Shown here in pieces: positions 22,866-50,817 of a DNA stretch of 64,000 bases. The DNA is taken from NCBI RefSeq assembly GCF_056746865.1, contig NZ_CM163382.1. One strand, given 5' to 3'. Below the pieces are notes generated by a model. The model did no database searches, was not told the origin of the DNA, and worked only from the letters and a program-made list of their open reading frames with translations. The first letter of the stretch is position 1. Every line of letters starts with the position of its first letter. Position numbers and translations under genes: made by a program.

Positions 22866-23257
22866 TTCTTGCCTCCAGGGCGCGGTAGCCGCTGCGCCCT
22901 GTCAATTTCCCTTCCTTATTAGCCGCTTACGGAATGTTCTTAAAACATTCACTTTTGCTTATGTTTTAGCTGATATCCCGAGCGGTTTCAAAATTGTGAT
23001 CTATATTTAACAAAGTAATGACATTTCTGACGGCGTTAAATACCGTTCAATGCGTAGATATCAGTATCTAAAGCCGTCGATTGTCATTCTACCGATATTA
23101 ATAACTGATTCAGAGGCTGTAATGGTCGTTATTCATCACCCATCGCTTTTGTGATGGCGACCATTGACTTCTGTAGAGGGTGAAGTCTCTCCCTATTCAG
23201 CAATGCAACCTCGTGTTGCCAGGCTCAAATTACGAGCAAACATACAGGAATAAATCG

Positions 23258-29026: not shown

Positions 29027-29223
29027 CTTCTTTTCCTTTTATGCCGAAGGTGATGCGCCATTGTAAGAAGTTTCGTGATGTTCACTTTGATCCTGATGCG
29101 TTTGCCACCACTGACGCATTCATTTGAAAGTGAATTATTTGAACCAGATCGCATTACAGTGATGCAAACTTGTAAGTAGATTTCCTTAATTGTGATGTAT
29201 ATCGAAGTGTGTTGCGGAGTAGA

Positions 29224-39551: not shown

Positions 39552-39777
39552 CCGTGACGAAACGGCTCAAAGGCGAGGTATAAATTGAGTTTTTTTGATG
39601 AGTTGAAAAACTCTCTGGAAGAGGCTGTTGAGATTAGAAAGAACCTGCACGGGTGACCCGCTACGAAATTGCAGATGCTAAGGCTATTCGTGAGCAACTT
39701 CATACTCCAACCGACCAGTTGCGTAGCCAGAATGCAATCAAATCTGACAGTCCGCTTCGGCGCGCGCTTTGGTGTAT

Positions 39778-39963
39778 TTACCGGAGTAAATCAGCGTGCC
39801 GTGGAAAATTATGCGCAGCGCTTCTGCTGATTTGCGTACCTTCGCTGATGATAAGTCCTGCACTAGCGTGCTGCGCGTAATAGTCCGCCATTATGTCAGT
39901 CGCAACGTCACCCGCGCGGGAACGCGTCATCGGTGGCATTACAATACGGTTTTTTAATGGCAA
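39778..39963 (-). pseudogene. decayed 5' fragment of an old-yellow-enzyme family NADH:flavin oxidoreductase
   Basis: 61-aa frame PLKNRIVMPPMTRSRA...YYAQHASAGLIISEGTQIS resembles the OYE/NemA N-terminal barrel start, then diverges to a stop; only a TTG start, with an in-frame stop just upstream. Confidence 0.5.
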
Positions 39964-40381: not shown

Positions 40382-40798
40382 TCAGGCAACAAAGTTGTCC
40401 TTCAGCGCCTTGAGACCATCCCGATAGATGCCGGTAAACAGCGCTTCGGCCTCTTCGTTCGTCACATTCACCGGGGTGAATTCACCGAACCATTCCACAC
40501 GAGAAACCTGGCTGTCGGCGGTTTCATGAACGGTAATGGTGGAGAGGTAATCCACCACCGGGAACGGTGCCTGAATAATGGAATAGGTATAACTGCGTTG
40601 ACGGTTATCAAACGCTTCCAGACGTTCAACCACAGTGCCGCCGTCAGAGGTTGTCAGCGAACGAACGCGACCGCCTTCTGTCACTACGCTTTTCGGGATG
40701 AACGGCAGCCAGTCTGGCAGCGCATCAAAGCCGCCCATCAATTGCCATACGGCGTCGGCAGAAGCCGGAATTTCGATCGATACAGTTGTTTTAGCCAT
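40382..40798 (-). CDS. SRPBCC-superfamily (polyketide cyclase/dehydrase-like, Bet v1 fold) protein
   Basis: 138-aa ORF; family assignment by overall resemblance, no catalytic motif verified. Confidence 0.6.
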   Translation of the reverse strand: MAKTTVSIEIPASADAVWQLMGGFDALPDWLPFIPKSVVTEGGRVRSLTTSDGGTVVERLEAFDNRQRSYTYSIIQAPFPVVDYLSTITVHETADSQVSRVEWFGEFTPVNVTNEEAEALFTGIYRDGLKALKDNFVA

Positions 40799-40823: not shown

Positions 40824-41621
40824 TTACATTGTTAGGGTGTCGACGACGCCGCCATCGACGCGCAGGGCTGCCCCTGTGGTTGCCGAGGAAAGCGGTGACG
40901 CGAGATAAACCGCCAGATTCGCCACTTCTTCCACATCTGCCGCACGCTGGATGATGGAGCTCGGACGCGAGGTTTTAACAAACTCATCGGCCTGTTCACG
41001 CGCACTGCGTCCCGACTGCGCAGCGGCATCCGCCAGCATCTCTTTCAGGCCATCGGTAAAGGTTGGCCCTGGCAGAATGGCGTTGACGGTCACACCGGTC
41101 CCCGCCAGTCGTTTCGCCAGACCATGAGAGACCGCCAGATTCGCGGCTTTGGTGACGCCGTAGTTGATCATGTCGCCAGGGATTGCCACGCCGGATTCGG
41201 ACGAGACAAAGATAATCCGCCCCCAGCCCTGTTCCGTCATGCCTGGCGCATAGTGACGCGCCAGACGAACGCCGGAAAGGACGTTGACGTTATAGAAGTG
41301 CATCCACTCATCATCCGGAACGCTAAAGAAATCTTTATCGTTGAAAATGCCCAGATTATTGACCAGCACATCAGCCGTTGGGACTGCAGCGATCAGCGCA
41401 GTCACGCCGTCTTCGGTGCTGAGATCGGCCACCACGCCGCGCAGTGACGCCGTGGGAGTTTGTGCCGCAATCGCAGCCATGGCGTCATCAACGCCGCTCT
41501 GTTTACGGCCGACGACAACCACCGTTGCGCCTGCTTTTGCCAGTCCGGCGGCGATACCCTGCCCAATGCCGGAGGTTGAGCCGCTGACCACCGCGACTTT
41601 ACCTGTCAGATCCAGTTTCAT
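40824..41621 (-). CDS. short-chain dehydrogenase/reductase (SDR) family oxidoreductase
   Basis: ORF-track frame 40824..41723; start trimmed to ATG 41621 (MKLDLTGKVAVVSGSTSGIGQGIA, 266 aa); TGxxxGIG cofactor motif and YGVTK catalytic YxxxK. Confidence 0.75.
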   Translation of the reverse strand: MKLDLTGKVAVVSGSTSGIGQGIAAGLAKAGATVVVVGRKQSGVDDAMAAIAAQTPTASLRGVVADLSTEDGVTALIAAVPTADVLVNNLGIFNDKDFFSVPDDEWMHFYNVNVLSGVRLARHYAPGMTEQGWGRIIFVSSESGVAIPGDMINYGVTKAANLAVSHGLAKRLAGTGVTVNAILPGPTFTDGLKEMLADAAAQSGRSAREQADEFVKTSRPSSIIQRAADVEEVANLAVYLASPLSSATTGAALRVDGGVVDTLTM

Positions 41622-41640: not shown

Positions 41641-42651
41641 TTAACGGGTCGGCAGCGGAGCGTTTTCCGCAACCAGATTTTGACGGCGCATTTCTGCCCA
41701 GAATTCAGCCGGAACAGGCGCATTCAGTGCAGCCAGATCTTCTGCCATACGGCCAGGACGGCTGGAGCCAGGAATAACCGCCGCAACGGCCGGGTTTGCC
41801 AGCGCGAACTGCAGCGCAGCTGCTTTAACGTTCACATTGAAACGTGTGGCAATGGTGTTAATTTGCGCCACTTTCTGCTGGATGGCCGCAGAAGCTTTCT
41901 GATATTCAAAGTGCTCGCCGCCTGCCAGTACGCCAGAGCTGTACGGACCGCCCACAACAATATCCACGTTCTGTTCCAGTGCTTCTGGCATCAGGCGTTG
42001 CAGCGCACGTTCGTGATCCAGCAGGGAATAACGCCCCGCCAGCAGGAACGCATCCGGCTTCGGTTCGTCCAGCGCCAGCGTCAGTTCGCAAGGTTCGACG
42101 CGATTCACACCCAGTCCCCAGGCTTTAATCACACCTTCGTCACGCAAACGCGTCAGCGCACGAAACGCACCGGTACGGGCTATGTTGAACTGTTCCAGCC
42201 AGCTGTCACCGTAGAAGTCCTGTGCCGGGTCGTGGATCCAGACAATATCCAGACGGTCTGTTTTCAGGCGTTTCAGGCTGTCTTCAATCGAGCGCAGCGT
42301 GGCGTCAGCAGAGTAGTCATTCAGAATTTTGTTTTTCAGGCCGTGTTCGAACAGGCCACCTTTTTCACCGAAATCACGTTTTGCCGGATCTTCCATTTCG
42401 TCCAGCATGATGCGACCGACTTTGCTGCTCAGAACGTATTCATCGCGTGGATACTGAGACAGCGCTTCACCCATGCGGATTTCAGAAAGGCCAGAGCCAT
42501 ACAGCGGCGCGGTATCAAAGTAACGCACGCCCAGGTTCCAGGCTTCGCTCACGGTGGCGTGGGCCTCGTCTTCCGGAATGGCACGGAACATGTTGCCGAG
42601 TGGTGCGCCACCTAAGCCAATTTTGCCGGGAAGTAAATTTTTGATGCTCAT
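41641..42651 (-). CDS. aldo-keto reductase family oxidoreductase
   Basis: 336-aa ORF; AKR-like N-terminus GLGGAPLG...FDTAPLYGSGLSE; GAGGA ribosome-binding site upstream. Confidence 0.75.
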   Translation of the reverse strand: MSIKNLLPGKIGLGGAPLGNMFRAIPEDEAHATVSEAWNLGVRYFDTAPLYGSGLSEIRMGEALSQYPRDEYVLSSKVGRIMLDEMEDPAKRDFGEKGGLFEHGLKNKILNDYSADATLRSIEDSLKRLKTDRLDIVWIHDPAQDFYGDSWLEQFNIARTGAFRALTRLRDEGVIKAWGLGVNRVEPCELTLALDEPKPDAFLLAGRYSLLDHERALQRLMPEALEQNVDIVVGGPYSSGVLAGGEHFEYQKASAAIQQKVAQINTIATRFNVNVKAAALQFALANPAVAAVIPGSSRPGRMAEDLAALNAPVPAEFWAEMRRQNLVAENAPLPTR

Positions 42652-42693
42652 AAGATGTCCTCAATTATTCGGTTTGGGTTAGGGCGTTTTTTT

Positions 42694-42709
42694 GCTATCG
42701 CCCTGTGAC
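42694..42709. promoter_or_regulatory. perfect CRP-consensus-like palindrome TGTGA-N6-TCACA in the divergent promoter between the AKR operon and the LysR gene
   Basis: TGTGACGTGGATCACA read from sequence. Confidence 0.45.
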
Positions 42710-42784
42710 GTGGATCACAATACCTTGCGAGGTTGTGACTTGATAGGACATAATTCGTCTGACTTAAGTCCTTTGAGGTCTAAC

Positions 42785-43672
42785 ATGATTGATTTACGCC
42801 AACTGAAGTACTTCGTGGTGGTCGCAGAAGAAGAGCACGTGGGACGCGCAGCCGAGCGATTACATATCTCGCAATCACCGCTGAGCCGCCAGATTGCACA
42901 ACTGGAAGAACGGCTGGGGCTGACGCTGTTTGAGCGTAATCAGCAGCGCATTCGCCTGACCGCTGATGGACAGACATTCCTTGCCGAAACACGTTCGTTG
43001 CTGACACACGCCAACCGCCTGGAGTCGTTAGGCAAACGCCTGGGACGGGGGGAAGATGGTGGCTTGTGTATTGGCTATATCGAAAACGCCATGCATTCCG
43101 GTGTGCTTTCTACGGCGCTACGTACGTTACGTGTATCGCGTCCGAATGTGCATATCGCACTTTACAGCCAACCACCGGCTACCCAGATTGAAGGCCTGCG
43201 CCAGCGCAGTCTCGATTTTTCTCTGGTCGACACGCCGCCCACCGACAGCGAGCAGGATCTGGAATATATTCAGGTTCTGGATGATCGAATGTTGTTGGCC
43301 TTACCGCAAAATCATCCTCTGGCGCAGGAGGAAAACCTTGTCGCGTCACAACTTGGCGATGAGCAGTGGATTGCGGTGATTCATAACGACGATGCGCATT
43401 CTCGCGATCATTTTGTCGCCGCCTGTGTTAACGCCGGGTTTAATCCTGATATTCGCCTGGAAGCGGGTGAACCCCTCACGGCATTAGGTTTGGTCGCTGC
43501 GGGATTAGGTCTGGCCTTAATTCAACATAGTCTGCGTCATAATGCGCCGGAAGGGGTGGTATTACGTGAATTGCCGTGGATGAATTATTCAACGCAATTA
43601 TGGGCAGCCTGGCATAAAGCCAACCAACGTCCGCTGGTTTCCCATTTCCGCCAGATCCTGCGCGGTGAATAA
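42785..43672 (+). CDS. LysR-family transcriptional regulator
   Basis: ORF-track frame 42692..43672; start trimmed to ATG 42785 (MIDLRQLKYFVVVAEEEHVGRAAERLHISQSPLSRQIAQLEERLG, 295 aa); LysR N-terminal HTH and C-terminal substrate-binding domain. Confidence 0.8.
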   Translation: MIDLRQLKYFVVVAEEEHVGRAAERLHISQSPLSRQIAQLEERLGLTLFERNQQRIRLTADGQTFLAETRSLLTHANRLESLGKRLGRGEDGGLCIGYIENAMHSGVLSTALRTLRVSRPNVHIALYSQPPATQIEGLRQRSLDFSLVDTPPTDSEQDLEYIQVLDDRMLLALPQNHPLAQEENLVASQLGDEQWIAVIHNDDAHSRDHFVAACVNAGFNPDIRLEAGEPLTALGLVAAGLGLALIQHSLRHNAPEGVVLRELPWMNYSTQLWAAWHKANQRPLVSHFRQILRGE

Positions 43673-50343: not shown

Positions 50344-50817
50344 ATGAAATACAAGCATTTGATCCTGTCTTTAAGCCTGATAATGCTGGGGCCATTGGCT
50401 CATGCAGAAGAGATTGGTTCGGTCGACACCGTATTTAAAATGATCGGCCCGGATCACAAAATTGTTGTGGAAGCCTTTGACGATCCCGATGTGAAAAATG
50501 TCACCTGTTATGTGAGCCGGGCGAAAACCGGTGGTATTAAAGGGGGATTGGGCCTGGCAGAAGATACCTCCGATGCGGCCATTTCTTGTCAGCAAGTCGG
50601 GCCGATTGAACTGTCGGATCGTATTAAAAACGGCAAAGCTCAGGGCGAGGTAGTATTCAAAAAACGCACGTCCCTGGTCTTTAAGTCGTTACAGGTCGTG
50701 CGCTTTTATGACGCCAAACGAAACGCGCTCGCTTATCTGGCTTACTCCGACAAAGTTGTAGAAGGTTCGCCGAAAAACGCGATTAGCGCGGTTCCTGTCA
50801 TGCCGTGGCGGCAATAA
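50344..50817 (+). CDS. creA: periplasmic protein CreA
   Basis: 157-aa ORF with signal peptide. Confidence 0.9.

Follow-up and report, generated by a model that had tools for sequence, protein, structure and literature searches.

A conserved CRP-type palindrome overlaps the predicted core promoter of a LysR-linked aldo/keto reductase operon in Escherichia coli

Introduction

LysR-type activators share a canonical layout, with an RBS near -65 and an ABS near -35 of the target promoter, and members of the BenM/CatM subfamily use three binding sites. CRP operators that overlap the core promoter and repress are known from osmY (around -12.5), cyaA P2 and gal P2. The best positions for CRP activation of sigma-70 promoters are -41.5 and -61.5, and activation from sites in between is very weak (PMC2859248). 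A curated set of 169 CRP sites comprises 133 activators and 36 repressors; sites of this set that lie within -31..+23 and contain neither TTAC nor GAGC are repressors in 7 of 7 cases (PMC5772556). Here we describe a CRP-type palindrome in the spacer between a LysR-family regulator gene and a divergent operon headed by an aldo/keto reductase (AKR) gene, and compare it with these systems. The locus lies in a 64-kb stretch of E. coli chromosome, the whole of which is referred to below as the window.

Results

The cassette and its LysR-AKR module

The window has the gene order hpa ... osmY ... deoCABD-lplA-serB-radA-nadR-cassette-ettA-slt-trpR. The cassette consists of genes for a DUF1471 protein, an SRPBCC protein, an SDR oxidoreductase and the AKR on the minus strand and of the LysR gene on the plus strand (Table 1). 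Of 5426 complete E. coli genomes, 482 carry it, in every case on the chromosome between nadR and ettA; we take it to be absent from K-12, the strain behind published CRP maps. At its left border (39585..39939), RefSeq annotates a frameshifted partial NadS-family gene and a truncated hypothetical gene, which may be remnants of the insertion between nadR and ettA. Elsewhere in the window, lgoT (L-galactonate transporter; 5110..6471) is a pseudogene with an internal stop in the annotation of the matching reference strain.

The SDR and SRPBCC genes follow the AKR gene in the same orientation, and this synteny is kept in more than 20 loci. The ORF list gives the SDR 299 amino acids from an ATG at 41723, overlapping the 3' end of the AKR gene; the shorter start at 41621 is backed by RefSeq and by all orthologues (264-266 amino acids). 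In orthologous loci the AKR matches Pfam Aldo_ket_red. Its nearest solved relatives are plant L-galactose dehydrogenases, but this match is too weak and partial to assign a substrate from it. A literature search found no paper naming AKR, SDR, SRPBCC and LysR together.

Orthologues of the LysR protein with 61-93% identity were found in Klebsiella, Serratia, Pseudomonas, Janthinobacterium, Variovorax, Caballeronia, Paraburkholderia, Stenotrophomonas and Streptomyces. Its nearest solved relatives are 7w06 and BenM/CatM, and between genera its N-terminal DNA-binding region hardly changes. In 24 of 26 orthologous loci (L002-L027), lysR and the AKR gene are divergent neighbors, the latter usually followed by an SRPBCC gene with or without an SDR gene, and the divergent arrangement also occurs in enteric-type loci and on an Ewingella plasmid; altogether, the regulator-target synteny is kept in more than 30 loci. 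The module is rearranged in the Burkholderia loci L014 and L018, where the AKR gene is on the opposite strand, about 1-2 kb downstream of lysR. Adjoining the lysR start, some 50 bp of non-coding sequence (42733..42784) are recognizably conserved in E. coli, Pseudomonas, Burkholderiales, Stenotrophomonas and Streptomyces, with the consensus GAC.GTCCAAGACATAAT...ACTTGAGTCC....AGGTCT (L002-L027; for example L021, 3940..4000). Over the E. coli-to-Streptomyces range the LysR and AKR proteins are 61-75% identical. The whole regulator-operator-operon unit thus seems to have moved horizontally across phyla.

Table 1. Features of the LysR-AKR locus, in window coordinates
Feature	Sequence	Position	Strand	Remarks
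SRPBCC protein gene		40382..40798	minus	RefSeq annotation converted to window coordinates
SDR oxidoreductase gene		40824..41621	minus	RefSeq annotation converted to window coordinates
AKR gene		41641..42651	minus	First gene of the operon
Stem-loop	AGGGCG-N12-CGCCCT	42681..42704	minus	Around +8 in the predicted leader of the AKR mRNA
CRP-type palindrome	TGTGACGTGGATCACA	42704..42719	no strand	22-bp site 42701..42722, centre 42711.5
Predicted AKR-operon -10	TATTGT	42717..42722	minus	Invariant TAnnnT; predicted start ~42711/42710
Predicted sigma-70 lysR promoter	TTGCGA-N18-CATAAT	42725..42754	plus	Predicted start ~42761
Candidate LysR ABS''	TGACTTGATAGGACA	within 42736..42760		Centre 42743, about -32 of AKR promoter
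Candidate LysR ABS'	GGACATAATTCGTCT	within 42736..42760		Centre 42753, about -42 of AKR promoter
Candidate LysR RBS dyad	AGTCC-N5-GGTCT	42767..42781		Centre 42774, about -63 from predicted AKR start
LysR-family regulator gene		42785..43672	plus

Sequence and statistics of the palindrome

The initial annotation described a 133-bp spacer between the AKR start (42651, minus strand) and the LysR start (42785, plus strand), containing a perfect match to both half-sites of the CRP consensus TGTGA-N6-TCACA. We confirmed this layout, and the palindrome has the reported sequence, agreeing with the consensus at 10 of 10 core positions; it had been placed at 42694..42709, and its true place is 10 nt to the right. 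It is the only perfect TGTGA-N6-TCACA core in the whole window, where 0.04 would be expected, and at least one such core occurred in 4 of 100 dinucleotide-preserving shuffles of the window. By our arithmetic, the chance of a perfect core in a given spacer of 133 bp is about 1e-4. Matches to the core with up to two mismatches are not in excess (25 in the window versus 24 expected).

A scan with a CRP weight matrix, as the initial annotation had proposed, was less telling. The 22-bp matrix is an approximate one, with 19 classic CRP sites as its training set; on it, the palindrome scored 13.0 bits and ranked fifth in the window, whereas the training sites had a median of 13.8 and a minimum of 4.0 bits and the maximum in shuffled windows averaged 13.4 bits. 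By this score the palindrome resembles an ordinary real CRP site, but the score alone is not significant; because it does not exceed the shuffled maximum, we dropped it as evidence of non-randomness. The score is lowered by a G+C-rich left flank (CCC), which is atypical of CRP sites. Two known CRP sites of deoP2 (29135..29156 and 29188..29209, upstream of deoC), each with two core mismatches, served as positive controls within the window.

Other CRP-like sites were seen in the window. The sequence AAATGTGATCTAATTAACAAAC in the hpaG-hpaR intergenic region (2652..2673; one core mismatch, 17.2 bits) probably belongs to the promoter of the catabolite-controlled hpa meta-cleavage operon. Another, AATTGTGATCTATATTTAACAA (22992..23013; 14.0 bits), precedes the start codon of osmY, a gene reported to be CRP-repressed, by about 250 bp. 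A core with one mismatch, TGTGAAAAATGTCACC, is found at 50490..50505.

Conservation and distribution of the palindrome

The palindrome occurs in 14 distinct sequences from four lineages (E. coli-type, Klebsiella-type, L087 and L113/L115). The E. coli-type sample, 11 distinct spacers drawn from three divergent complete genomes and about 20 metagenome contigs, carries it in every variant examined. Across the 14 sequences, positions 1-7 and 11-16 (13 of 16) are invariant, and variation is confined to positions 8-10, which read GTG, GGA, GAA or GCT; the Klebsiella-type, L087 and L113/L115 versions are TGTGACGGAGATCACA, TGTGACGGAAATCACA and TGTGACGCTGATCACA, respectively. Among the same four lineages, the flanking lysR and AKR genes vary at 80% of their 4-fold degenerate sites, and at a rate of 0.80 the probability that all 10 core columns stay invariant is about 8e-8. 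This conservation, the strongest evidence that the palindrome exceeds chance, argues that it is maintained by selection. Fixed half-sites around a free centre are the signature expected of a symmetric dimeric protein contacting two half-sites. A LacI/GalR-type operator was rejected, since a central CG is missing and the middle 3 nt of the palindrome are free to vary.

Outside these lineages, the palindrome was not found in the Serratia, Ewingella, Pseudomonas, Burkholderiales, Stenotrophomonas or Streptomyces copies of the module, nor in three further enteric-type lineages; at the homologous place, Serratia reads CGTCACGAGGCTAAAG. The palindrome-bearing type was found on no plasmid, and the nearest plasmid copy, on Ewingella pB61a (74% identity), lacks the palindrome. 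Matrix scoring revealed no substitute CRP-like site in the Serratia, Ewingella, Pseudomonas, Burkholderiales or Streptomyces spacers, and the best scores in palindrome-less spacers were below 6 bits, except for one of 9.2 bits with 6 of 10 core matches. Turnover of the CRP site was thereby ruled out. Absence from all other copies of the module indicates that the palindrome is a derived, lineage-specific addition in one branch. At least two members of this branch, E. coli and Klebsiella, live in hosts with CRP. CRP is present in Serratia and Ewingella too, and that their copies lack the palindrome although the hosts have CRP counts against reading it as a CRP operator.

The conservation extends to the whole block CCCTGTGACG...ATCACAATACCTTGC, for which -10 and -35 elements account in part. 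At the place of the palindrome, Pseudomonas copies conserve a sequence of their own that is not CRP-like, GACCGTTGAGCAGATCC (L002-L012, L020 and L027; columns ~42703..42720), so some constraint acts there independently of CRP. The Pseudomonas sequence may be the site of a different, lineage-specific regulator or reflect a constraint on the initial transcribed sequence.

Predicted promoters and LysR boxes of the module

To locate the promoters, we used a footprint of 28 distinct, gaplessly alignable spacers ranging from E. coli to Streptomyces. All 28 have A at 42722, T at 42721 and A at 42717, and columns 42718-42720 vary freely. On the minus strand this amounts to an invariant TAnnnT, which we interpret as the -10 hexamer of an AKR-operon promoter with an implied start at about 42711. 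The predicted lysR promoter was the sole promoter-like match of a promoter scan, and Pseudomonas loci have identical hexamers at identical spacing. Its -35 element is separated by just 2 bp from the AKR -10 (42722..42717), giving two back-to-back predicted promoters.

The TA at 42721-42722 is common to TAnnnT motifs on both strands, TATTGT on the minus and TACCTT on the plus strand (42717..42726), and T42726 is kept in 27 of the 28 sequences. This stretch may hold two overlapping -10 elements that face in opposite directions. Streptomyces has TAGGAT as its plus-strand hexamer and lacks the CATAAT element; the lysR promoter may use the upstream plus-strand -10 there.

The position of the stem-loop in the AKR leader fits a transcript that starts upstream of it. 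The hairpin recurs with other sequences in Klebsiella (GGGCGAC/GTCGCCC), Serratia (GGGGC/GCCCC) and Pseudomonas (GGTCA/TGACC), and also as GGCAG/CTGCC, which suggests a structural 5'-UTR element. No Rfam family matched within 42500..42900. The palindrome itself was rejected as an RNA element: it has no Rfam match, and with the predicted start at its centre only half of it would be transcribed.

A LysR box could not be placed by eye in the initial annotation; the 28-sequence footprint now offers candidates at 42736..42781. The RBS dyad is the best dyad in every lineage group and overlaps the lysR leader and Shine-Dalgarno sequence; its pairs are A42767:T42781 (27/28), G42768:C42780 (28/28), C42770:G42778 (28/28) and C42771:G42777 (27/28). 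In the ABS'' dyad GAC-N7-GAC (42737..42749), the pairs G42737:C42749 and C42739:G42747 are complementary in all 28 sequences. The ABS' dyad GAC-N7-GTC is partly kept, with C42749:G42757 complementary in 28 and G42747:C42759 in 17 of 28. We assign these boxes, all of the form GNC-N7-GNC, to the LysR protein by inference. With the RBS at -63 and the ABS dyads at -42 and -32 of the predicted AKR start, the arrangement is that of a LysR-type divergent activator module, and the invariant TAnnnT and the geometry of the LysR boxes, as two independent lines, agree on the AKR start. The boxes also cover the regulator's own promoter, which predicts autorepression.

Position of the palindrome relative to the promoters

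The centre of the palindrome coincides with about +1 of the predicted AKR promoter, so that it spans about -8..+8, and its right half-site overlaps the predicted -10 by 3 nt. Relative to the predicted lysR start, the centre is at -49.5. Class I/II spacing for sigma-70 activation, with a centre near -41.5, near -61.5 or whole helical turns farther upstream, is thus found at neither predicted promoter. Instead, the palindrome lies on the predicted AKR start, within the -35 to +20 region that operators of CRP-repressed promoters overlap, and occupancy by CRP at this position should exclude RNA polymerase. The 22-mer contains neither TTAC nor GAGC. The E. coli variants L096 and L108, however, read CACATTACC and contain TTAC, which puts them outside the PredCRP repression rule and counts against repression.

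At the class II distance of 22-27 nt downstream, the four lineages with the palindrome have no conserved -10; they read CTAACC, GCACAG, ACCTGA and TAACTG there, and E. coli variants lose the TA of the best class II -10 candidate. Indels shift the AKR ATG relative to the palindrome by up to 19 nt among lineages. A class II AKR promoter was rejected on account of the missing shared -10 and of these indels. Class I or II activation at lysR was rejected as well, since the alternative -10 elements that would put the centre at -41.5 or -61.5 (TGATAG and TTAAGT) are poor or would remove the Shine-Dalgarno sequence.

The initial annotation took the motif to suggest catabolite control layered on the LysR regulator and to favor a catabolic role for the cassette. 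Input from cAMP-CRP is plausible, as the motif is maintained in a divergent control region. The step from the motif to activation and hence to a catabolic role is unsupported, given a centre near +1 of the AKR promoter and at -49.5 of lysR (predicted starts) and a control predicted to be of negative sign.

Discussion

The palindrome is best read as a genuine, selectively maintained operator for a symmetric dimer, most probably cAMP-CRP. The account we favor, with a probability of roughly one half, is that of a real CRP operator which represses the LysR-activated AKR operon by occlusion at high cAMP. The LysR-AKR control module, with its two putative back-to-back promoters, one for lysR and one, LysR-activated, for the AKR operon, would be much older and horizontally spread, and only the E. 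coli/Klebsiella-type branch would have gained the CRP site. Bound CRP would compete with RNA polymerase at the AKR core promoter and lower expression of AKR, SDR and SRPBCC at high cAMP; negative catabolite control by promoter occlusion would thus come on top of inducer-dependent activation by LysR. What the sequences show directly is the motif and the way it is conserved, together with the geometry of the conserved elements of promoter and operator; the transcription start sites, the identity of the binding protein as CRP and the sign of regulation are inferred.

More tentatively, cAMP-CRP and a LysR tetramer may form a composite switch, in which the CRP site, gained when this module for detoxification or metabolism entered Enterobacteriaceae, sits exactly over the LysR-activated start and three helical turns from the LysR activation site. 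The operon would then fire only with inducer and at low cAMP, the reverse of classical catabolite control. If true, such logic would suit the removal of glycolysis-derived reactive carbonyls.

Positive catabolite control, with CRP binding and activating one of the divergent promoters, appears unlikely. A perfect consensus core in a divergent promoter region would suit it, the majority of known CRP sites activate (133 versus 36 repressors; PMC5772556), and a site at -49.5 does activate the sigma-28 promoter aer (PMC2859248). For activation, however, the AKR transcript would have to start near 42670 (class II, -41.5), or CRP would have to act on the lysR promoter in an unconventional way. The former is opposed by the lack of a conserved -10 downstream of the palindrome, by the variable distance to the AKR ATG and by the TAnnnT and LysR-box geometry, which indicate a start at ~42711; an AKR start giving -61.5 would land in the start codon. 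As for the latter, the lysR promoter looks like a sigma-70 promoter, for which -49.5 is a poor position.

We also give little credence to a different protein binding the palindrome, be it another dimeric regulator or the cassette LysR at a third, promoter-proximal site comparable to BenM site 3. The cassette regulator is BenM/CatM-like, the centre of the palindrome lies 31.5 bp (three helical turns) from that of ABS'', and TGTGACGTG at 42704 recurs as TGTGACTTG at 42734. The second TGTGAC, however, is TATGAC in the remaining palindrome-bearing lineages, and other genera have no counterpart of the palindrome despite their nearly invariant LysR DNA-binding region. The conserved boxes, moreover, are odd-length GNC-N7-GNC elements centred on a base (42743, 42753 and 42774), unlike the palindrome, an even-length 16-mer that fits neither G-N11-C nor T-N11-A pairing; it was rejected as a LysR box.

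It is similarly improbable that the sequence is held by constraint on the promoter and transcript (-10, discriminator, initial transcribed sequence or foot of the stem-loop), with a coincidental likeness to CRP sites and no regulatory consequence. The palindrome does share bases with the -10 on its right and border on the stem-loop on its left, Pseudomonas conserves a different sequence at this place, and the matrix score is not above the shuffled maximum. Against this, a derived sequence is unlikely to match all 10 core positions by coincidence (about 1e-4 for this spacer), or to restrict its variation to the symmetric centre; in addition, high-affinity CRP binding is expected of any site with a perfect core, whatever its origin. 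Chance occurrence without function can be set aside as very improbable, since the half-sites are invariant across lineages near synonymous-site saturation, even though a perfect core turned up in 4 of 100 shuffled windows.

If confirmed, repression through the CRP-type site would be a clean natural case of a global regulator wired, in a repressing position, onto a horizontally acquired regulator-operon module. The analysis also corrects a functional inference, as the motif alone is no argument for a catabolic role of the cassette. Beyond the palindrome, the comparative work yields candidate operator and promoter assignments (the RBS AGTCC-N5-GGTCT and back-to-back promoters) for the LysR-AKR-SDR-SRPBCC module, which ranges from E. 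coli to Streptomyces. In practical terms, the impact is modest.

Comparison with known systems

As a DNA motif, the palindrome is of the same kind as the two known CRP sites of deoP2 in the window. It differs from sites of CRP activation in its spacing, at about +1 of AKR and -49.5 of lysR, which is not that of activated sigma-70 promoters (PMC2859248). The predicted lysR promoter shares the CRP-to-start distance of -49.5 with the sigma-28 promoter aer (PMC2859248), but its hexamers are of the sigma-70 type, and no sigma-28 -10 of the GCCGATAA type was seen by eye.

The module itself resembles BenM-benA, CatM and CbnR, for which a sliding-dimer model applies: here too, the regulator is divergent, with a dyad near -63 and weaker dyads near -42 and -32. 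The candidate box is of the form GNC-N7-GNC (AGTCC-N5-GGTCT), in contrast to the ATAC-N7-GTAT or strict T-N11-A boxes of those systems, and the CRP-type palindrome is an extra element outside the conserved module.

The closest likeness of the palindrome is to the class of core-promoter CRP repressor sites (PMC5772556): it is of the TGTGA-N6-TCACA type, lies within -31..+23 of the predicted start and overlaps the predicted -10. It differs from described CRP-repressed promoters in its target, a LysR-type activator-dependent promoter in a horizontally acquired cassette, with both the start and the binding predicted. The palindrome would thus act like known core-promoter CRP operators, inside an otherwise textbook LysR-type divergent module.
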